Under the pieces are notes generated by a model. That model searched no databases, was not told the origin of the DNA, and worked only from the letters and a program-made list of their open reading frames with translations. Of a DNA stretch of 64,000 nt, positions 2,118 to 13,608 are shown piece by piece (positions within the stretch are counted from its first letter, which is position 1; the number at the start of each line of letters is the position of its first letter). The DNA lies in assembly GCA_963664435.2 (NCBI GenBank), contig CAXXKM010000002.1, positions 704,001-768,000 of the forward strand, read 5' to 3'. The position numbers and the translations under genes are program-made. The stretch comes from Longimicrobiales bacterium. GTDB lineage: Bacteria; Gemmatimonadota; Gemmatimonadetes; Longimicrobiales; Gaopeijiaceae.

Positions 2118-4016
2118 TCAGAACGCGAACCCTCCCCTCTGGAAGGCAGGGTTTCCGTCCACCAGCGTGAGCAGGACCCGGTCGCCCATCTCCAGGATCC
2201 GGTCCGGCTCGCGCTCCAGCTCCCACAGGTCCTCGAGGTCGAGCACCACCAGGTCGGCGACCTTGCCGGGCTCCAAGCTGCCGGTCCAGTCATCCGAGTA
2301 GGTCAGGTAGGCGTTGTCGATGGTCATCCCGCGTAGCGCCTCCTCGAGCGTGATGATCTGCTCCGGTCCATGCTGGTCTCCCCAGAGATCCGTGCGCGTG
2401 AGCATGGCGTAGAGTCCGATCCAGGGACTGTACGGCGAGGTGCCGTAGTCGGAGCCCACCGCGATGCGCACCCCGGAGTCCAGGTAGCTGCGCATCGGCT
2501 TCAGGCGGGCCATGCGCCCGGGGCTCAGGTTGGCGGAGAAGGAGCGGCCCTGGTGGTAGATGAACGACGGGTTGACGGCTGCGATGATGCCGTAGTCGGC
2601 CATCTTCTCGAGGACGCTGGTCTCCTCTTCCATGGGCAGGTAGGCGTGGATGACGCTCCAGCGCAGATCGGCGTCCGGGTCCTCGGCCCGGATGGAGTCC
2701 ATCAGCTTCGCGAAGATGTCGACCGTCTGCTTCATGCCCAGATCGCCGGTCGAGTGGATGTGCGGTTCCCAGCCGCGGTCGACGGTCGGGCGCAGCTGCG
2801 CCTCGCGCACATCGTCCTCCACCCAGTGGTAGCCGTGGTTGGGCTCGCCCTCGATGCTCTCCCAGTCCACGAAGGGCACGGACACCCATGAACTGCGTGT
2901 GCCGGCCCCGCCGTCGATCTGCCACTTGGTGCCGCGCCAGCGCAGGAAGCGGTCGCCCAGGTTGTTGAAGGGGAGGGCGGCGAAGTGGGCGTCGATCTCC
3001 TCCGGGGACTGGGTGTTCCACATGCCCTCGTATACCTGCAGGATGCGGAAGTGCAGCAGGCCGCGGTCGCGGGCGTCCTGGTAGGGGCGCATCACCCGGC
3101 CGCCTCCACCGGGGTCCACGATGGCGGTCACGCCCAGGCTGGTCATCTCGCGGCTGCCGTAGTCGATGGCGCGCAGCTGGGCCTCGTAGTCGCGCTGGGG
3201 CGGGTTCACCGTCACCAGCCGCGTCGCGTTCCCGAGGAACATCCCGGTGGGCACTTCCACCTCGCGGGTCTGCCCGTCCACCGTCAGCGTGCGCATCTCG
3301 CGGAAGACCCTGTCCTCGTAGTTGAACCAGTCCAGGTCCTGGAGCCACCAGTCGGGCCAGGTGGAGGAGTCGGAGTCGTCGATGCCCATCAGGCGGAAGG
3401 CGGCCGTGTTGACCGCGACGCCGCGATAAACCCGGCCCAGCCGGAGCGGATTGTCGGGCGTGTGCTCGTCGAGTTGCCAGCGGGTGAAGGGCCTCTCGTA
3501 CTTGTGCTCGTCCCATCCGCGGCTCGTGACCCACTCGCCGGGCTCGGGGTCGAGGCGCTCCATCAGGTCGGCGATCAGCTGCACGATCTCTTCGGTGCTC
3601 ATGGCGTAGCGGAGGTCGTTCTCGAATTCCGCCTCGATCCCCAATTGTGAGAAATGGAGGTGGGAGTCGATCAGGCCGGGCAGGACGACGCGTCCCCCCA
3701 GGTCGGTCACGCGCGTGTCCGGGCCGGCAAGGGCGAGAACCTCCTCGTCGGTGCCGACCCGCATGATCTCGGACCCGCCTGGACTCCGGCGCCAGGCGAT
3801 GGCCTGGGCGACCGAGAAGTCGTCGTCGACGGCGGCGACCTGTCCGTTGTGCAGGATGCGGTCGGGCGTCGCCGCGCCCGTGGACGCACCCTGCCCGCAC
3901 GCGGCCGCCCCGAGCAGCAGGACGCTGGCGAGGAGCGCGGCAAGAGGGCTGCCCCGGTCGAGGGGGAGGCGGATGTCCGGGCGCCCGGGCGAGCGGTCGG
4001 GTCTGGATGCGTGCAT
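2118..4016 (-). CDS. Amidohydrolase_3 (YtcJ-like) metal-dependent hydrolase, lipoprotein
   Basis: PGLIDSHLH, HIHSTGD, VIHA, GSDY, GSLEPGKVADLVVL; lipobox-like LGAAAC. True start may be downstream of 4016. Confidence 0.88.
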   Translation of the reverse strand: MHASRPDRSPGRPDIRLPLDRGSPLAALLASVLLLGAAACGQGASTGAATPDRILHNGQVAAVDDDFSVAQAIAWRRSPGGSEIMRVGTDEEVLALAGPDTRVTDLGGRVVLPGLIDSHLHFSQLGIEAEFENDLRYAMSTEEIVQLIADLMERLDPEPGEWVTSRGWDEHKYERPFTRWQLDEHTPDNPLRLGRVYRGVAVNTAAFRLMGIDDSDSSTWPDWWLQDLDWFNYEDRVFREMRTLTVDGQTREVEVPTGMFLGNATRLVTVNPPQRDYEAQLRAIDYGSREMTSLGVTAIVDPGGGGRVMRPYQDARDRGLLHFRILQVYEGMWNTQSPEEIDAHFAALPFNNLGDRFLRWRGTKWQIDGGAGTRSSWVSVPFVDWESIEGEPNHGYHWVEDDVREAQLRPTVDRGWEPHIHSTGDLGMKQTVDIFAKLMDSIRAEDPDADLRWSVIHAYLPMEEETSVLEKMADYGIIAAVNPSFIYHQGRSFSANLSPGRMARLKPMRSYLDSGVRIAVGSDYGTSPYSPWIGLYAMLTRTDLWGDQHGPEQIITLEEALRGMTIDNAYLTYSDDWTGSLEPGKVADLVVLDLEDLWELEREPDRILEMGDRVLLTLVDGNPAFQRGGFAF

Positions 4017-4208
4017 CTGTCAATCCGGGGTTCGGGGTCGGCGTGGGGGTTGTCCCGTCATTGTAGCGCGCGAACGCGCGTTCCGCCCGACTCCCGCGGC
4101 GTCCATCCGCTGCCGACCCGGTCGGGCAGAAGAAGCCCCGGCCCATCCCTGCCGGGCAGCAGGAGACCGGGATCCGAGGCGAAGGTGAACCCCGTGTCGG
4201 GAGCAATA

Positions 4209-4247
4209 GCGAACCCTCCCCGGAGATTGCTCCCGGGGAGGGTTCGC
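4209..4247 (-). terminator. Strong GC hairpin downstream of the lipoprotein gene; probable intrinsic terminator
   Basis: gcgaaccctccccgg-N9-ccggggagggttcgc, a perfect 15-bp inverted repeat 28 nt past the stop at 4275; U-tract is weak. Confidence 0.6.
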
Positions 4248-4274
4248 AGTACTGCCTGGACTGGCTGAGTCCTG

Positions 4275-4754
4275 CTAGCCGTCGTCGTGCTCGTGTACGT
4301 GAATGTGGAGTGGTTCGGTCACGAAGTCCGCGTGTCCGGACCCGACCGCGCCGTGCATCAGGCTGAAGGTGATCTCGGTGTCGCCTTCCGCCTGTCCGTG
4401 CAGGTGTCCGCCGAACTCCCCAGGGGTGTCCTGCTCGAATTCGGCGATGGCTTCGTCCTCGACTTCCGCTTGGAGGTAGTAGTCGTCATCAAGTACCACC
4501 GCCGCTCCGTTGTGGTCCAGGAAGCGTACGCTGATGTGGGCGGTCTCCTCGCCCGGCTCGACCTCCAGCTCTCCGGTCCACTCACCGTCGTGTCCATCGT
4601 AGGACGCGATGGTCTGGCCGCTCAGCACCAGCGCCACGCCCTCGACTTCCTCTGCATGGTCTTCTTCGGGTTCGGTCGCACTCTCGCATGCCGAGAGAGC
4701 CAGGATGCCTGCGGTCAGCAGGGCGAACGGTAGTCTCAGTCTCGAATGTCTCAT
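4275..4754 (-). CDS. His/acidic-rich lipoprotein, putative periplasmic metal-binding partner of the TonB-dependent receptor
   Basis: Lipobox LSAC; EPEEDHAEE, GGHLHG, MHGAVGSGHADF, C-terminal HIHVHEHDDG; directly downstream of the receptor. Confidence 0.75.
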   Translation of the reverse strand: MRHSRLRLPFALLTAGILALSACESATEPEEDHAEEVEGVALVLSGQTIASYDGHDGEWTGELEVEPGEETAHISVRFLDHNGAAVVLDDDYYLQAEVEDEAIAEFEQDTPGEFGGHLHGQAEGDTEITFSLMHGAVGSGHADFVTEPLHIHVHEHDDG

Positions 4755-4831
4755 CTTTCATTTTACCTCGTTGATGTTGTTCCCTGGCCGTCCCTGTCGC
4801 GAAGCGTCTCCGCAACTGCCGGGACCTCGCT

Positions 4832-7048
4832 CTAGAAGACGACCCTGTATGCCACGCTGATGGATCTCCCCGCTTCGGGCATGATTTCCTTTACGCGCGA
4901 CAGGTGGTTCCTGTACTCGGCATTGCCAAGATTCTCTCCCCGCACGGTGATCACGTTCAGCCGCCCCCTGACCGTGATCCGAATTCCGGCGGAGAGATCG
5001 AAAACAGCATATCCGTCCGTTGCGCTCTCGAAGGGGCCGGTCCGGTCCTGGCGAGCGGCAACCCGGGTTTCGGCCTCCACGAACCAGGCGCGCGGCGCGT
5101 AGCCGACGGCGAAACGCCCTTGCAGTGGCGGGATCAGGGGAAGCGGCTCATCGGTCGCCTTGATCCTGCCGCGGACGTGGGAAGCCACCGCTTCCACGGT
5201 CAGATCGCCGACCACTACCCATTCCAGGGCGCTCTCGAAACCGTTGAGCACGGCGTCGTCTCCGTGAAACTGGAAGATGGGCAGCCGCACTCGGCTCAAC
5301 TCTCCCGTTTCCAGGGGGAAGACATACCCCGAGATTGCGTTGTGGAACACGGTCATCTCGGCGTTGAGCCGGTCCCCCGTAAAGCGCACGAACATGTCGA
5401 TGCCGGTGCCGCGTTCGGTTTCGAGCGACGGGTTTCCCACTTCGAAGGCATAGGCCGCCAGGTGCGGACCCTCGGAGAAGAGTTCGTTGACGCTCGGGGT
5501 GCGGAAGGCCCGGGCGACGGAGGCGCCCACCGTGAAGTTCCGGGTCAACCGTCCGAGTGCCCCCAGCGATCCGGATGCCGCGCCGAACGATCGCGCGCGG
5601 ATGTGGCCTATATCGGATGAGGGATCCTCCCGATCCGGCCGCACGCGCGCCCAGTCGTAGCGAAGGCCGGCTTCCACGCGTATCGGATCCAGATCGATTT
5701 CTTCCAGCGCGTAGGCGGCGAAGGAGGCGTGGGTGGAGTTCGGGGTGTACAATCCGCCGCCGAAGCCGAAGCTCTCCCAGGAAGCCCGCGTTCCCACTCC
5801 CCCCGAAGTGAACGGTCCCCAGTCCGCGTGGCGGGCCAGGATCTCGCCGCTGACCGTCTGGCGCTCAAAGAGCGTCCCCAGAATATCGGGGGGTTCGATC
5901 TCCTTGTGCCGGTACCAGGTGTAGCCTGCGTCGATCTCGATGGTCTCGAAGACCCCATCGGACCTGACCAGGCTCCTGAGCCGGGTTGCGGTCCGCTCCA
6001 TTTCGACGCGAACCCCGGCTTCGTGACCCCCGATGAATCCTCCAGGGATGCCGTAGTCGTTGTCGTAGTAGCGGAAGGTGGCGCCGGCGTGGCCCCAGTC
6101 GTCCACCCAGGATGTTCCACCCGAGAACTCCAGGACATCGGTGCCGGTGTTCCGGAGCACTCCGGCCGGGGTCTTCAGGTCGCCGCTGGTGCGGCGCGCG
6201 AACTCCAGCCGCACGGGGATATGGTCGGTCAGGCCATACGTGGCACTCAGGCTACCGCCGGCCGCGTTGCTGACGCTTTGTCCCTGGAGGGTGAAGGCCC
6301 CGGTGAGGTGGTGGGGCACAGAGGCGGGCACGTCGTCGCGCACGACGTTGATGATGCCCCCGAGGGCGTTGCTCCCGTAGAGGATCGCGCCCGGTCCGCG
6401 GATGACCTCGACCCGGCGCGCCGACGAGGCGTCGATTGCCGTGGCGTGGTCGGGACCGCTCGCGAACTGGTCGCCCACCCTCTGTCCATCCTCGAGCATG
6501 AGGATGCGGTCCCCGCTGAGGCCCCGGATCACCGGGTGCGCGGAACCCGGTCCCATGCTGCTCACGGCGAGCCCGGGTTCGGAGGCCAGCGTTTCCGCCA
6601 GGGTCCCGGCCAGGCGACGCTGCAGCTCTTCTCCCGCGAATACGCTGGCCGGCCGCAACACCTCGTTGGCCGCGCGCGCCACCAGCGACCCGGTGACCAC
6701 GACGGGCGGCAGCGAGATGGGGTTGGCTTCCATCTCCACCACCACGATCTCATCGCTCGACGCGTCCACTTCAAGCGAAATCGTGCGATAGCCCAGGCGC
6801 TCGACCCGCACCGTGTAGATGCGCAGACCCGGCACGGGCACGTGGAACGTGCCGTCGCCATGGGAGACTGCCATGGCGGCCGCGGCGCCGATCGACACTA
6901 CGGCGCCGGCGAGGGGCTCGTTCGAGTCGACGTCGCGTACGACGCCCTCGATCTCGCCCTCGTGCTCGACCTGCGCGGACGAGCCTGCGGCCCCGAGAGC
7001 CATTGCCAGAACTGCCGGAATGGAACCGGTCAGTCGCCTCAGTTTCAT
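4832..7048 (-). CDS. TonB-dependent outer-membrane receptor, ZnuD-like metal-uptake type
   Basis: Signal peptide, carboxypeptidase-regulatory-like N-domain, VVVTGS, plug PVIRGLSGDRILMLEDG...GPDHATAID...VEVIRGPGAILYGSNALGG, ELFSEGPH, C-terminal RNHLSRVKEIMPEAGRS...YRVVF. Confidence 0.92.
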   Translation of the reverse strand: MKLRRLTGSIPAVLAMALGAAGSSAQVEHEGEIEGVVRDVDSNEPLAGAVVSIGAAAAMAVSHGDGTFHVPVPGLRIYTVRVERLGYRTISLEVDASSDEIVVVEMEANPISLPPVVVTGSLVARAANEVLRPASVFAGEELQRRLAGTLAETLASEPGLAVSSMGPGSAHPVIRGLSGDRILMLEDGQRVGDQFASGPDHATAIDASSARRVEVIRGPGAILYGSNALGGIINVVRDDVPASVPHHLTGAFTLQGQSVSNAAGGSLSATYGLTDHIPVRLEFARRTSGDLKTPAGVLRNTGTDVLEFSGGTSWVDDWGHAGATFRYYDNDYGIPGGFIGGHEAGVRVEMERTATRLRSLVRSDGVFETIEIDAGYTWYRHKEIEPPDILGTLFERQTVSGEILARHADWGPFTSGGVGTRASWESFGFGGGLYTPNSTHASFAAYALEEIDLDPIRVEAGLRYDWARVRPDREDPSSDIGHIRARSFGAASGSLGALGRLTRNFTVGASVARAFRTPSVNELFSEGPHLAAYAFEVGNPSLETERGTGIDMFVRFTGDRLNAEMTVFHNAISGYVFPLETGELSRVRLPIFQFHGDDAVLNGFESALEWVVVGDLTVEAVASHVRGRIKATDEPLPLIPPLQGRFAVGYAPRAWFVEAETRVAARQDRTGPFESATDGYAVFDLSAGIRITVRGRLNVITVRGENLGNAEYRNHLSRVKEIMPEAGRSISVAYRVVF

Positions 7049-7209
7049 GGACAGCCTTCTTCCAGCCGCACCGACGTGCCTCTCGCTCCTTGCGCCAGGC
7101 TCCGCGGTGCGACTCGCCGAAATGCTTCAGCGGTTAGCGCGAATTACGGGATGGGTTGTTGCCGCGTAATGAGCGGACTGGGGTTCCGGGACAACCAGCC
7201 CGGAAGGCG

Positions 7210-7563
7210 TCAGGCCCGGGGAGGGGCCCTCGGACCGCTGCCGCCGGGCGGAATCGGGCGGTTTTGCCAGGCGGATGCGGTCGGGGTGTCCATGCTGGTT
7301 TCGAATACCAGCGGGAGGTCGATCAGAACGAGGGGGGGAACCCTCGACGACAACGTGCGCGTCAGCTGGCACAGCAGGTGGCTGTGTCCCGTATCGCAGT
7401 GCTCGCTGTTCTCCCCTTCAATATGCACACCGGTGCTCAGCCCTCTGGCTTCGAGCACCGCATCCGCCGAAGGAAGACCGGCGAACGCGGCGAACTGAAC
7501 CAGCGAGAGGGAGAGAACGCCGAAGCGGCGAAGGTCCCGCGATCGAGGAGAAATCGGCTTCAC
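7210..7563 (-). CDS. Small exported leader protein with His/Cys motif and C-terminal RAPP arrest motif (DUF2946/CruR-like)
   Basis: Probable GTG start at 7563 (VKPISPRSRDLRRFGVLSLSLVQFAAFAGLPSADA); HIEGENSEHCDTGHSHLLCQ; ends GSGPRAPPRA*; 161 nt upstream of the receptor start. Confidence 0.7.
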   Translation of the reverse strand: MKPISPRSRDLRRFGVLSLSLVQFAAFAGLPSADAVLEARGLSTGVHIEGENSEHCDTGHSHLLCQLTRTLSSRVPPLVLIDLPLVFETSMDTPTASAWQNRPIPPGGSGPRAPPRA

Positions 7564-7753
7564 AACTATGCCGGCTGGGTACATCCGGGTGCGGCAGGAG
7601 AGCACTCCGGCCTGATGCAGCAAGCTGCGTTCGGCGGCGGAAGGTGTCAAGACGACAACGCGTGGTTTGACCCCCGCCGGCATCCGGCCCACAATACCCG
7701 GATCCCCGCCTTCGGGGACGGGGGGACGGAGTCACCTGAGAGGAGCGGACGAA

Positions 7754-8650
7754 ATGAAACCGGCGAAATGGATACTCGGACTACTGGTGGTCATCCTGCT
7801 TCCGGCTTCACCGGCGGAGGCCCAGGGGCGCCGCAACCTGACCCCGGAGCAGCAGGCCGAACGGCAGCGGCGCATGGAGGAGATGAGAGTTGCCGCGCGG
7901 CCCATCGAGGGCATCAACTCCATCTGGATCGACGAGTTGACGTGGATGGAGGTGCGCGACGAGATCGCCTCCGGGAAGACCATCGGCATCATCGCCACCG
8001 GCGGCGTCGAGCAGAACGGCCCCTATATGGCGGGCGGAAAGCACAACTACGTGCTCGAGGCGATGTGCGATGCGATCGCGCGCGAACTTGGCAACGCGCT
8101 GTGCGCACCGGTCATGAAGTACGTACCCGAGGGCGACCCCGAGAACATCCGGTATCCGGGCACCCTCAGCGTGCGCCAGGAAACCTTCCGCATGGTGCTC
8201 GAGGATGTGGCCAACAGCCTGAAGAGCCAGGGGTTCACCGATGTCGTCTTCATCGGGGACAGCGGCGGCAACCAGAACGGCATGTCGGACACGGCGGAGA
8301 AACTCAACGAGTACTGGGGCGGCACGGCGCGGGCCCACTACATCGAGGAGTATTATCGGGAAGACATCTGGAGCTGCGTATTCCTCGAGGAGGAGCTCGG
8401 GATCTTCCAGAAGCCCGATTTCTGCTCCGCCACGCGCGACATTTACCACGACGACGTGCACTACTCGTCGATCGTGGCCACCACCGACCCGGATCGCATC
8501 CGCGCGCGGCAGCGCATGGAGGAGGGGCTCTACTCGATCAACGAGGTGGAGCTGGGGCCGGTGGAGCGGACCATCGAGATCGGCGAGAGGCTGATCGAAT
8601 ACCGGACGGAGATCACCGTGCGGGCGATTCGCGAGAGCATGGGGCGGTAG
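7754..8650 (+). CDS. Creatininase-fold protein, exported (paralog 2)
   Basis: ATG 7754 with aggag RBS; signal peptide to AEA-Q; ELTWMEVRD, TGGVEQNGP, GGKHN, YPGTLSV, IGDSGGN, YHDD. Confidence 0.85.
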   Translation: MKPAKWILGLLVVILLPASPAEAQGRRNLTPEQQAERQRRMEEMRVAARPIEGINSIWIDELTWMEVRDEIASGKTIGIIATGGVEQNGPYMAGGKHNYVLEAMCDAIARELGNALCAPVMKYVPEGDPENIRYPGTLSVRQETFRMVLEDVANSLKSQGFTDVVFIGDSGGNQNGMSDTAEKLNEYWGGTARAHYIEEYYREDIWSCVFLEEELGIFQKPDFCSATRDIYHDDVHYSSIVATTDPDRIRARQRMEEGLYSINEVELGPVERTIEIGERLIEYRTEITVRAIRESMGR

Positions 8651-10480: not shown

Positions 10481-12268
10481 CTATCGGTTTCCGATCCTCT
10501 CCTCGATGAGGCGCGCGGTGCGTTCGGCGCGGGCGTCGGAAATCTGGCGTGCGACCTCGAGCGACGCGCCCAGATCGGCGATCGAGACCCCGTTGATGAC
10601 CGCCTGTCCCGTCTTCACGCGTTCGGCCCAGCGCACCGAGGCCGGGTCGTCGAGCATCATGTTCAGCGTAATTCCGGGGCTGTCGTGCAGCCCGTCGCGC
10701 GGCATGTCGTCGGTTACGATGCCCAGGTCGCGCAGCACGTTGGGCGTGCCCGGCGGGGTCCGGTAGTACTCCGGGATGAAGTGGACGGCCGCCTCATCGC
10801 CCCAGGCCTGGTTCAGCGCGTTGGCCACGTTGTCCATGCCGCGCTGGTTGCCGCCGCTGTCGCCGATCAGGACGATGTTCTCGAAGCCGTGCATCTTCAG
10901 GCTGTGGGCAACGTCGGTCAGCACCGCCTCGAAGGTCTCCTGGCGCAGGCTGATGGTGCCCGGGCTGGTCATGTGGCCGCTGGGCGGCTCGATGTTGCCT
11001 TCGGGAACGGTCTCGATCACGGGGGCGCAAAGCGCGTTGCCGAGCTTCTTCGCGATCGCGGGGCAGTTGGCGCGCAGCACGTAGTTGTGCTTGCCGGTGA
11101 CCAGCCAGGGGCCGTTGGGCTCCACGCCGCCGGTCGAGATGATGGCCGTCGTCTTGCCGCCGGCGAGCGCGTCGCGGACGTCCATCCACGTCATCTCCTC
11201 GATCCAGAGCGTGCTCGTCTCGGGGAGCGGGTTGGGGGTGTCCGCGCAGTTGTAGGTGTTGGCGCGGCAGTCGCCTCCGCCCATGGAGCGCGGATCGGGT
11301 TCCGGGCGCTGCGCCGGCCCACCACCGGCGGCCCGCATGGCCTCGAAGCGGGCACGCATCGCGGACCGGTCGGGCGCGGGCAGGGTGCCCCGGTTGGCGA
11401 TGGCCTTGCGGATGGCGTCCGAGGTGTGTTCGGCGCGGAACTCCACGACCTCGCGGGCCCACTCGAGCGACTGGACCCGGTCCTCGAGGGAGACGCCGTT
11501 GATGGTCGCCTTGCCCGCCGCCACCCGCTCCTCGTAGCGCACCGAGAAGGGGTCGTCGTACAACATGTTCAGGGTGATGATCGGGTCGTCGTGCAGCCCG
11601 TCGCCTTCGCCGTCCTCGAGCCCCCGGAAGGCCATGTAGCGGGTTACGGAGTTGTAGTCGTAGTACTCCTGCACGTGCGCCACGACGGCGGCGCCCGCGA
11701 ACTGTTCGTTGAGCTTCTCGGCCACGGCGCGCTGACCGCCCTGATTCCCGCCGCTGTCGCCGATGAAGATGATGTTGCGGAAGCCGTGCATCTTCAGGCT
11801 GTGCGCGACATCGGTGAGCAGCGCCTCGAAGGTCTCCTGCTGCAGGCTGAGGGTGCCGGGGCTGGTCATGTGGCCGCTGGGCGGGTCGATGCTGCCCTCG
11901 GGCACCAGCTTGATGATCGGAGCGCACAGGGCATCGCCCAGCTCCCGGGCGATGGCGTCGCAGTTGGCGCGCAGCACGAAGTTGTGCTTGCCGGTGGCCA
12001 GCCAGGGGCCGTTGGGCTCGACGCCACCGGTCGGGATGATGGCCGTGGTCTTGCCGTCGGCGAGGGCGTCGCGGACGTCCATCCACGTCATCTCCTCGAT
12101 CCACACCGTGTTCGCCGCGGGAAGCGGGTTGGGCGTGTCGCGGCAGTTGTAGACGTTGGCGGCGCAGTCACCGCCGCCCATGCTGTTCGGATCGCGCTCG
12201 GGGCGCTGCTGGGCCATGGCGGCGGTCGAGGTGAGGAGCAGGGCTCCGGCGAGCAGGGCGGTCTTCAT
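10481..12268 (-). CDS. Exported protein with two tandem creatininase-fold domains
   Basis: ATG 12268 (MKTALLAGALLLTSTAAMAQ) with ggagga RBS; two copies of SMGGGDCxxNxYNCxDTPNPLP-WIEEMTWMDVRD-TGGVEPNGP-TGKHN-GHMTSPGT-IGDSGGN-DGLHD. Confidence 0.87.
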   Translation of the reverse strand: MKTALLAGALLLTSTAAMAQQRPERDPNSMGGGDCAANVYNCRDTPNPLPAANTVWIEEMTWMDVRDALADGKTTAIIPTGGVEPNGPWLATGKHNFVLRANCDAIARELGDALCAPIIKLVPEGSIDPPSGHMTSPGTLSLQQETFEALLTDVAHSLKMHGFRNIIFIGDSGGNQGGQRAVAEKLNEQFAGAAVVAHVQEYYDYNSVTRYMAFRGLEDGEGDGLHDDPIITLNMLYDDPFSVRYEERVAAGKATINGVSLEDRVQSLEWAREVVEFRAEHTSDAIRKAIANRGTLPAPDRSAMRARFEAMRAAGGGPAQRPEPDPRSMGGGDCRANTYNCADTPNPLPETSTLWIEEMTWMDVRDALAGGKTTAIISTGGVEPNGPWLVTGKHNYVLRANCPAIAKKLGNALCAPVIETVPEGNIEPPSGHMTSPGTISLRQETFEAVLTDVAHSLKMHGFENIVLIGDSGGNQRGMDNVANALNQAWGDEAAVHFIPEYYRTPPGTPNVLRDLGIVTDDMPRDGLHDSPGITLNMMLDDPASVRWAERVKTGQAVINGVSIADLGASLEVARQISDARAERTARLIEERIGNR

Positions 12269-12435
12269 GATCCTTCCTCCTGGTTCCGATGGGTGCACGA
12301 GCATGAACGAACCGCGTGCACGCAGAAGCACATCGTACATCATGGGTGGTTTCGGTGCGAGTTCCCCGCGTAACCAGGGACAGGGGAAAACCGCATAACG
12401 TTCGTTGGTGGCCCGTCGGGAGACGGATCGTCGGA

Positions 12436-13608
12436 TCACCCCTCGTGAATCTCCGCCGCGGCGCGGAGACCCGACTCGAGTGCGCCGTTCATCCATCCGC
12501 GCGCACCGGAAAGGTGCTCGCCCGCGAAATGGATCGGCCCCTCGGGCAAGGCGAGCGCGCTGCCGAGTTCGCGATCCTGGTCCGGCGTGGGCTCGGCCCA
12601 GGCGCCCCGGCTCCAGCGGTCCTGCTGCCAGGAGTGGGATGTGCCGGAGGCGAAGTGGCTGGAGGCACCCGGAAGGAGCGGTTCCCAGTGGGAGAGCACG
12701 CGGGCGACGCGGGCGGGGTCGTCCAGTCCATCGAGTTCCCGGGCGCGCGCGCCGCGGACGTAGGTAAGCAGGACGCCTTCGGGGCCGGCGGTATCCCAGG
12801 TGGGATGCCAGAGTTCTTCCGGCCAATCGGTCGTCCCCCACCCGTTCAGTCCTTCGGCCTCCCAGAACCGCGTCCGGAAGCGGACGAAGACCCGGGTCGC
12901 GCTCTGGTAGCGGAAGCCGCCACCCATCGCCTCGGATTTCGCAGCCGAGAGGGCCGGCGAGAAGTGGATGTTCGAGAGAAGCGGCACCGGGACGGTCACG
13001 AGCACACGGTCCGACTCCCGGGTCCGGCCGTCCATGGAAGTGGTGCGGACCGGGGTGCCCGCCGTGATGTCGACTACGGGCGATCCCAGGACCACCCGCT
13101 CGCCCAGCGCTGATCGGAAGGCGTCGGGAAGGCGATCGCTCCCGCCGTGGATCTTGACGTAATCCGGGCGCTCGGAAAGGAAGGAGGATGCGGGAACGAT
13201 TGCCCGATCTCCGCTTCGGACTTGAAGATAGAGCCCGTCGTCGGGGTAGAGGCGGTCCAGCTCCAGCCCGAAGTGGCGGGCGTATCCGAGGGTCAGGCCG
13301 TGTTCGGGGGGGATGCGCGCGGCGCCCGCCTCGGCCGATTGCCCGGGCGCGAACGGGGTGCGCAGCGTCAGCACCCGCCCGCCGACGCGGTCACGGGCTT
13401 CCAGCACGGTCACGTCGTGGCCTGCCCGGACGAGTTCGTAGGCCGCGCCGAGGCCGGAAATGCCGGCGCCGACCACGACGACGCGCAGAGGCCGGGCCGC
13501 GGGGGTCAGTACTCCGGGCGATTCCTCCGGCCCGACGAGATCCGTGCAGGAGACCAGGCCGAGCCCCGCCAGGCCGCCGGCGCGGAGAAGGAAGTCGCGT
13601 CGATTCAT
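12436..13608 (-). CDS. Flavin-containing amine/amino-acid oxidase family protein, Tat lipoprotein, unusually short
   Basis: MNRRDFLL...[48 protein letters not shown]. Confidence 0.85.

Follow-up and report, generated by a model that had tools for sequence, protein, structure and literature searches.

How is a TonB-dependent receptor with a zinc-type binding site controlled where no Zur or Fur box precedes it? The question is raised by a locus in a Longimicrobiales genome, lying in a stretch of 64,000 nucleotides (contig CAXXKM010000002.1 of GenBank assembly GCA_963664435.2, positions 704,001 to 768,000; hereafter the window, in which bare positions are counted). Its operon is read entirely from the minus strand in the order leader open reading frame (ORF), 161-nt gap, TonB-dependent receptor, lipoprotein and 3' hairpin. 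The leader ends in RAPP, and a reading made earlier from the letters alone (the sequence-only reading) had proposed that it senses a metal while being translated, as CruR does. We favour, with moderate confidence, the reading that the leader is a zinc-relieved RAPP arrest attenuator, CruR-like and probably working via Rho, that governs a ZnuD-like receptor and its lipoprotein. Stalling, metal identity and mechanism at this locus are inferred steps.

The leader gene and its candidate sensor motif

The leader product comprises 117 residues and ends in GGSGPRAPPRA, with RAPP two codons ahead of the stop. Comparison with 16 orthologues gives a dN/dS of 0.47 for the whole leader, 0.16 for residues 45-70 and 0.19 for residues 101-117, as against 0.68 for the signal region and 0.87 for the linker; across 17 orthologues the RAPP codons vary synonymously. 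Because purifying selection bears on the His/Cys motif and on the RAPP end, the codon comparison indicates that the 117-codon leader is a real, conserved gene. In-frame starts exist further upstream (ATG 7584 and GTG 7692), and GTG 7563 is common to the orthologues; since the predicted promoter lies downstream of GTG 7692, GTG 7563 is the favoured start. In the orthologue alignment this promoter has a conserved TTGAC and a conserved final T in its -10 element, and the promoter pattern occurs upstream of 31 of 111 leaders compared with 0.8% of random genome windows. The association with the receptor also exceeds chance, because a RAPP/RGPP-tailed segment lies 20-400 nt upstream of only 4 of 844 long ORFs of this genome and of 49 of 66 related receptor loci (70 loci minus 4 without upstream DNA; four of the 49 were assigned by hand, and one of these ends in RPPP).

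A profile search returned 117 leader homologues, and a wider profile gave 1,107 representatives (50% clustering, E-values up to 0.001), the best 150 of which were used for residue counts. The leader profile matches 153 of 401 sampled Gemmatimonadota genomes. Within the segment HIEGENSEHCDTGHSHLLCQ (leader residues 47-66), the 150 representatives keep H47 in 147 cases, E49 in 138, C56 in 144, H60 in 147, H62 in 121 and C65 in 149; C68 follows in 83, R69 in 144 and R112 in 148. The family motif is thus H-x-E-x6-C-x3-H-x-H-x2-C-x2-C, then a C-terminal RAPP. The motif first drawn from the single sequence stands for its other His and Cys residues; it included H55, which is kept in 41 of the 117 homologues, and overlooked E49, kept in 114.

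This leader reads C65-Q-L-T68 and so lacks the CxxC of DUF2946. By alignment, T68 is the lost second Cys, and the site is a degenerate CxxC lost across this lineage. The earlier label of a non-CxxC sensor does not hold for the family, more than half of which keeps C65-x-x-C68 at the CruR spacing. A quick tree of 146 leaders (midpoint-rooted, over 114 columns that include the Cys68 trait itself) places 63 of the 64 Cys68-less sequences in one branch among CxxC-bearing ones (SH-aLRT 88), and because they form a single branch there, the tree suggests that the absence of Cys68 is a derived loss. A hidden Markov model check that the sequence-only reading had suggested returned no match of the leader with PF11162 (DUF2946, gathering cut-off 23.7 bits), and its homologues score 9-22.8 bits, all below that cut-off; Pfam and NCBIfam scans assigned the leader to no family. 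In one ESM Atlas neighbour cluster at 0.96, DUF2946 is found in 11% of the members. Formal DUF2946 membership has therefore failed, and judged by its motif and architecture the leader is a DUF2946-like peptide, distantly related to CruR/CutF, that carries an additional His/Glu/Cys module.

RAPP or RGPP is present in 146 of the 150 representatives (133 RAPP, 13 RGPP), two residues from the end in 130, and the distance from the second Cys to the Arg is 43-47 with a mode of 45 in the 82 CxxC-bearing representatives; in this leader C65 lies 46 residues and T68 43 residues from R112. The linker between them is near-neutral in sequence and fixed in length. In CruR the spacing between motif and RAPP is 45 and is reported to be required for regulation (PMC9426467). 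Both RAPP and RGPP are described as robust motifs that arrest ribosomes in several contexts, and CruR arrest has been shown by toeprinting, with its RAPP prolines occupying the P and A sites (PMC12992588). We consider it very likely that the leader is a regulatory arrest peptide, and likely that it responds to a metal. The CruR logic ascribed to it by the sequence-only reading holds for its design, since the signal-like region, the His/Cys motif and RAPP are conserved together and, as the proposed survey of homologues bears out, are co-conserved with a downstream metal receptor.

If the product were instead a small exported zinc-binding protein in which RAPP is incidental, its export-like signal and six candidate ligands would be explained, and if the ORF were not a gene, RAPP could arise by chance, as 209 of 45,839 stop-to-stop segments of this GC-rich genome end in RAPP/RGPP. 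The near-constant position of RAPP/RGPP in the family and the length-fixed linker speak against this, as does the AlphaFold2 model of the leader, which predicts helices at residues 7-41 and 62-72 only and is otherwise unstructured (pTM 0.36; pLDDT 86-97 across residues 11-40 of the first helix). We hold this explanation to be highly improbable. Scanning the whole genome in six frames for RAPP gave mostly noise, and a fold search with the leader model was dropped as the model is too unstructured.

Several variants were met in the family. Leaders at loci L026, L153 and L154 end in RPPP and carry a motif insertion (L153 and L154 come from genome G373, and L026 matches L154); among these loci one has a broken receptor and another a broken lipoprotein, which suggests decay. 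At locus L007 (~2850-3000) the leader breaks off after the signal region and is fused to the sequence just before the receptor start, without sensor, RAPP or gap; its receptor is 82% identical, and the locus is either a natural deletion or an assembly artefact. The same genome as the window holds a second RAPP leader (C1:810942-811334, minus strand) with an HTH...CSVC motif, scoring 23.1 bits with PF11162, just under the cut-off. It heads genes for an ABC ATPase and DUF3526 ABC-2 permeases, one permease being seemingly split over two frames, in an arrangement like that of znuGHI, an ABC-2 operon repressed by Zur in Caulobacter; no Fur-family box was found near it.

The receptor and its lipoprotein

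The receptor contains the Pfam Plug and TonB barrel domains. Its best NCBIfam match out of 30 is ZnuD (NF038289, 201.8 bits, cut-off 950), the copper-receptor model giving 92.8 bits. Among solved structures the receptor is closest to ZnuD of Neisseria meningitidis (PDB 4RDR, E-value 2.9e-34). The zinc ligands of ZnuD are reported as Asp99, His100, Glu340 and His499 (PMC4557270), and in the alignment with 4RDR, for which a numbering offset of 14 residues was inferred, they correspond to D200, H201, E383 and H529 of this receptor. The four ligands are kept in 64 of the 64 alignable loci among 70 related receptor loci, one of the six search patterns used to collect these loci having contained E383. 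The receptor, which to the sequence-only reading had looked Zn/Ni/Co-type, points more narrowly to zinc, all four ZnuD ligands being kept. The nearest relatives (83-92% identity) come from Gemmatimonadota metagenome-assembled genomes, chiefly Longimicrobiales and Ca. Palauibacter. A second ZnuD-like receptor in the same genome (C1:94151-96355, plus strand) is 55% identical and has the same four ligands.

The lipoprotein has the lipobox LSAC with an invariant Cys23; H134 and H141 are invariant as well and H33 is nearly so. Its structural model (pLDDT 87.8) matches Ig-like domains of S-layer and tail proteins with a TM-score of about 0.4, and Big_2 is a weak lead; an attempt to assign a specific fold failed, the fold search giving generic Ig-like domains only. 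The gene is present in 47 of the 70 receptor loci, under either regulatory type, and we infer that the lipoprotein may be a metal-capture partner of the receptor. At locus L025 (6717-7997) a relative of it has the His-bearing domain in three or more tandem copies.

Leader versus Fur-family operator

The sequence-only reading had found no Zur/Fur box at the locus, and this absence is confirmed with a positive control. At paralogous receptor loci a palindromic box, in its cleanest form TAATGATAA-N4-TTATCATTA, stands directly after the TTG of a putative -35 element, and within this genome it scores 21.2 before a DUF3299-MerC-Fur-family operon (C2:576823). At the locus itself the matrix score is -14.2, compared with 23.5-50.6 for the training sites, and a scan with three Fur/Zur consensus patterns gave no match close to the leader (6-7 mismatches). 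Box and leader are unevenly distributed over the 66 receptor loci. The 34 loci with this leader type have neither a box nor a Fur-family gene. Among the remaining 32 the box is present in 31, and a Fur-family gene lies upstream in 16 of these: in 15 loci the box accompanies another RAPP leader, of CxxC type (a Fur-family gene in 5), in 16 it occurs without an intact leader (a Fur-family gene in 11), and one locus has neither leader nor box. In the phylum sample described below, one of 65 leaders passed the symmetric box matrix, out of register and blurred, and six leaders before ZnuA/B modules carry a different Fur-like element. The query for the Fur-family regulator gave no match in several leader-bearing genomes that are 98-100% complete (e.g. 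G061, G141 and G133).

A further possibility, which we put forward tentatively, is that in this lineage the nascent His/Glu/Cys zinc sensor is the sole zinc control of the importer, in replacement of Zur, and that the leader family is wired to at least two unrelated uptake systems in a third of the sampled Gemmatimonadota genomes. Several facts weigh against it. The 15 loci with both elements mean that leaders need not replace repressors; the split between leader and box follows receptor clades and may reflect one evolutionary event; the second ZnuD-like receptor of this genome has neither leader nor box, and no lipoprotein was found beside it; and the Fur-family regulator is Zur-like by genome context only and not provably Zur. 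Leaders and Zur can coexist, since in Caulobacter the first gene of an efflux operon activated by Zur belongs to DUF2946 (PMC4176598).

The operon behind the box in this genome (DUF3299, MerC-family and Fur-family genes, C2:575416-576850, minus strand) is likely a Zur-like autoregulated unit. DUF3299 reportedly occurs in a paper on a Vibrio zinc operon. Identification of the Fur-family paralogue (C2:575416-575826) as Zur by matches with solved structures failed, Fur, PerR, Nur and Zur scoring alike. A perfect palindrome, TGAGAATCATTCTCA, at C1:1543928 lies upstream of an ORF with a GTPase motif that we take to be FeoB-like, and is likely an iron-Fur box.

Genes behind the leader and the candidate metal

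The surroundings of the leader were surveyed in 60 regions around leader matches, hand-picked out of ~164 so as to cover different families and low-scoring matches, and chosen independently of the receptor; they held 67 leaders. The first downstream gene is metal-transport-like in all 67 cases. Thirty-five leaders precede ZnuD-like receptors and two a lipoprotein followed by a ZnuD-like receptor, and of these 37 receptors 34 could be aligned, 30 having D-H-E-H, three E-H-E-H and one being masked. Fourteen leaders precede a protein of ~430 residues, behind which ZnuA- and ABC-3-family genes always lie. The ~430-residue protein has no Pfam, NCBIfam or PDB match. When three of the binding proteins were compared with NCBIfam, the zinc protein AztC scored best, though below the cut-off. 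Accordingly, 51 of the 67 leaders precede ZnuD-like or ZnuA/ABC-3 uptake, two unrelated module types. The copper-homeostasis context of DUF2946 was not encountered, the downstream genes being ZnuD-like or ZnuA/B-type, and ZnuA itself was not found in this genome (96% complete). Mainly because two unrelated zinc-type uptake modules share one leader family, the sensed metal is probably zinc.

There are points that count against zinc or against a single logic. The ZnuD score of the receptor is far under the cut-off of its model; behind 12 of the 67 leaders lies a TonB receptor of a second family, which lacks the ZnuD site; and four leaders precede outer-membrane efflux proteins, three of them seen with CusA/CzcA, where the opposite, metal-on logic would be needed. 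The downstream wiring is thus not uniform, given the second receptor family and the efflux cases. Within the predicted sensor, several Palauibacter orthologues have lost C56, and the entire lineage has lost C68.

Nickel, cobalt, manganese or copper could take the place of zinc in an arrest leader of the same kind. Mixed His/Glu/Cys sites are not metal-selective on paper. ZnuA-family matches include Mn and Fe binders, the ancestral CxxC is the copper motif of CruR, and His-only CutF-like leaders have been reported before HupE/UreJ nickel/cobalt transporters. On the other side, the receptor retains the full ZnuD zinc site and scores better with the ZnuD model than with the copper-receptor model, no copper chaperone or multicopper oxidase family was found among 45 downstream proteins scanned, and the box at the paralogous loci is similar to the Zur sites of C. 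glutamicum, though its centre is 4 bp long instead of 3 bp. A metal other than zinc is, on this evidence, unlikely.

Further arrangements were seen around the leaders of this sample. Loci L122, L140, L142 and L143 hold divergent family members before efflux proteins and CusA/CzcA pumps, one type having a His at the position of C56. At L121, L133, L136, L147 and L165 two leaders lie ~3.5 kb apart, in the order leader, ~430-residue protein, ZnuA/B, then second leader and TonB receptor; in L165 the entire leader-receptor-lipoprotein cassette is repeated in tandem.

From predicted arrest to output

In CruR, the stall is reported to shield the transcript from Rho and metal binding to relieve the stall (PMC9426467). 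If the same scheme applies here, a ribosome would stay stalled at RAPP when zinc is scarce, cover the C-rich end of the leader and bar Rho, and the receptor would be transcribed. Zinc, when present, would bind H47, E49, C56, H60, H62 and C65 just outside the exit tunnel; the zinc-bound module would then fold and pull the chain free, the ribosome would finish the leader, and after its release Rho would terminate transcription within the 161-nt gap, turning receptor and lipoprotein off. With an importer downstream, metal-off is the useful logic, as in CruR. The gap measures 153-167 nt in most orthologues, and the corresponding gap of CruR is 162 bp (PMC9426467). It contains no U-tract terminator, and a canonical Rho gene is present in the genome, which also holds a second, Rho-like gene (C3:794239-795342; 474 bits, below the TIGR00767 cut-off). 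In 23 of 23 close loci cytosine is more frequent than guanine both over the last 49 codons of the leader and over the first 80 nt of the gap; among 74 distant loci this holds for the leader end in 65 and for the gap stretch in 63.

Two observations temper this scheme. At four-fold degenerate sites of the leader the bias is gone (335 C vs 324 G in close loci, 1081 vs 1081 in distant ones), so the C bias in the leader may merely reflect Pro-rich coding. Zinc-dependent folding can pull a chain free from SecM arrest, as reported for ADR1a, which folds 20-30 residues from the arrest site (PMC4571824), and this precedent is inexact because C65 is further than that from R112. We give a Rho-type output an even chance. 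An Rfam search of positions 4000-8000 returned two chance-level matches only and hence no known riboswitch. A conserved hairpin right after the leader stop was considered and given little weight, with z below -2 at only 15 of 111 loci and a mean of -0.8.

The same sensor might act on translation, as in SecM or CutF, the stalled ribosome melting an RNA structure that hides the ribosome-binding site of the receptor. CutF uses this route (PMC9973294), the gap is hairpin-rich, and in the minimum free energy fold of the locus the GAAGG ahead of the receptor ATG is paired with the bases that directly follow the leader stop. However, the gap folds no better than its shuffles (z -0.76), and RNAalifold gives no covariation support (term +0.24, a double change in 4 of 30 pairs). 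When a modelled ribosome footprint is blocked, the predicted accessibility of the start region stays at 0.46 at the locus, and in 23 orthologues it changes little and in both directions, so that in this weak test the stem-loop opening of CutF does not appear. Moreover, gaps of ~160 nt have been argued, for CruR, to be incompatible with coupling (PMC9426467). A translational output is accordingly improbable.

A sensor on the periplasmic side is a further alternative, in which the translocon pulls on the stalled chain and the stall is governed either by external metal binding or by the condition of the export machinery. The signal-like helix and, within this region, Q23 and D34 are conserved across the leader family, and CutF requires its signal peptide. 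CruR, with the same spacing and an importer downstream, is nevertheless reported to work without its signal (PMC9426467). With 114 residues made, C65 would lie ~49 residues from the transferase centre, an estimated position in or before the translocon, and neither sec nor yidC is the first gene after any of the 67 leaders. We regard periplasmic sensing as decidedly unlikely, and retain cytoplasmic relief of the arrest by zinc as the favoured reading.

Layout of the locus

The features of the operon are collected in Table 1. All coordinates that the sequence-only reading had given proved correct. Its strong closing hairpin is indeed stable (-49.2 kcal/mol, z -6.7, none of 200 shuffles equally good), though it is absent from the intrinsic terminator calls.

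Table 1. Features of the leader-receptor-lipoprotein locus (positions in the window).
Feature	Position	Strand	Basis or remark
Leader ORF, predicted CruR/CutF-like RAPP arrest peptide	7210..7563	-	GTG 7563 to TGA 7210, 117 aa
Predicted sigma-70-type promoter (TTGACA, 17 nt, CAGCTT)	7622..7650	-	Orthologue alignment
Signal-like N-terminus, residues 1-35	7459..7563	-	Basic N-region, hydrophobic helix, A-D-A at 33-35
Predicted metal-binding module (H47, E49, C56, H60, H62, C65)	7366..7425	-	Family conservation, dN/dS
RAPP arrest motif (R112-A113-P114-P115)	7219..7230	-	Family conservation, synonymous codon variation
Intergenic region, 161 nt, first half C-rich, hairpin-rich, without U-tract	7049..7209	-	
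ZnuD-like TonB-dependent receptor, 738 aa, carboxypeptidase-regulatory-like domain at N-terminus	4832..7048	-	ATG 7048
His/acidic-rich lipoprotein, 159 aa, predicted Ig-like beta-sandwich	4275..4754	-	
Strong 3' hairpin at operon end, without U-tract	4202..4256	-	Folding vs shuffles

Creatininase-family paralogues flank the locus, two of them Pfam-confirmed (1169-2071 and 7667-8650) and one a two-domain look-alike (10481-12841); one of the family genes is divergent, ~100 nt from the predicted -35 of the leader. An inverted repeat at 7610-7585 (minus strand), in the predicted 5' untranslated region, is kept in close orthologues and missing in distant ones; an RNA hairpin and an operator of some other regulator are the candidates.

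Comparison with known systems

The leader resembles CruR (Bp2923, DUF2946/PF11162) of Bordetella pertussis, located upstream of the TonB transporter BfrG (PMC9426467), in its signal-like N-terminus, Cys-containing candidate metal motif, C-terminal RAPP, spacing of ~45 residues and gap of ~160 nt, and in its place at the front of a metal-uptake operon, before a TonB receptor gene. It differs by the added H-x-E-x6-C-x3-H-x-H module, the lost second Cys, a score below the PF11162 cut-off, a receptor with the ZnuD zinc site instead of a copper context, and its Gemmatimonadota host. With CutF of Rhodobacter capsulatus and 29 CutF-like clusters it shares a small Cys/His leader with a signal-like start and a Pro-rich end, and a metal-homeostasis gene next to it. 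In CutF, however, copper is reported to stall the ribosome, open a stem-loop and turn a detoxifying enzyme on (PMC9973294), whereas here an importer follows a long gap and no stall-dependent opening is predicted by the model. The His-only CutF-like clusters before HupE/UreJ are likewise unlike this family, and non-copper variants of CutF-like leaders have already been anticipated (PMC9973294; bioRxiv 10.1101/2025.02.05.636593).

The receptor keeps all four high-affinity zinc ligands of ZnuD of Neisseria meningitidis. ZnuD is reported to be Zur-controlled (PMC4557270), while this receptor has no operator and possesses an added N-terminal domain and a downstream lipoprotein. RAPP/RGPP upstream ORFs before TonB-dependent receptors have been described as universal in Gram-negative bacteria (PMC12992588). 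The main text of that work contains no mention of zinc or Gemmatimonadota and no motif, family definition or metal assignment for such ORFs, and its source data include at least one member of this leader family and at least nine leaders before 'zinc-regulated' receptors. According to the CruR paper, neither copper nor zinc has a described riboswitch, a gap that for copper may be filled by leader peptides (PMC9426467). No report of a zinc-sensing arrest peptide was found in the literature searched, which mostly leaves out subscription journals.

Members of the family differ naturally in whether they retain CxxC and C56, in having an importer or an efflux system downstream and in the presence of an operator, and these variants make metal selection by the peptide and the on/off direction testable in vitro. 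Copper CruR and CutF, His-only CutF-like leaders and RAPP upstream ORFs before TonB receptors are already published. What is new here is probably a zinc-directed variant of the CruR design, which, if true, extends co-translational metal sensing to a second metal.

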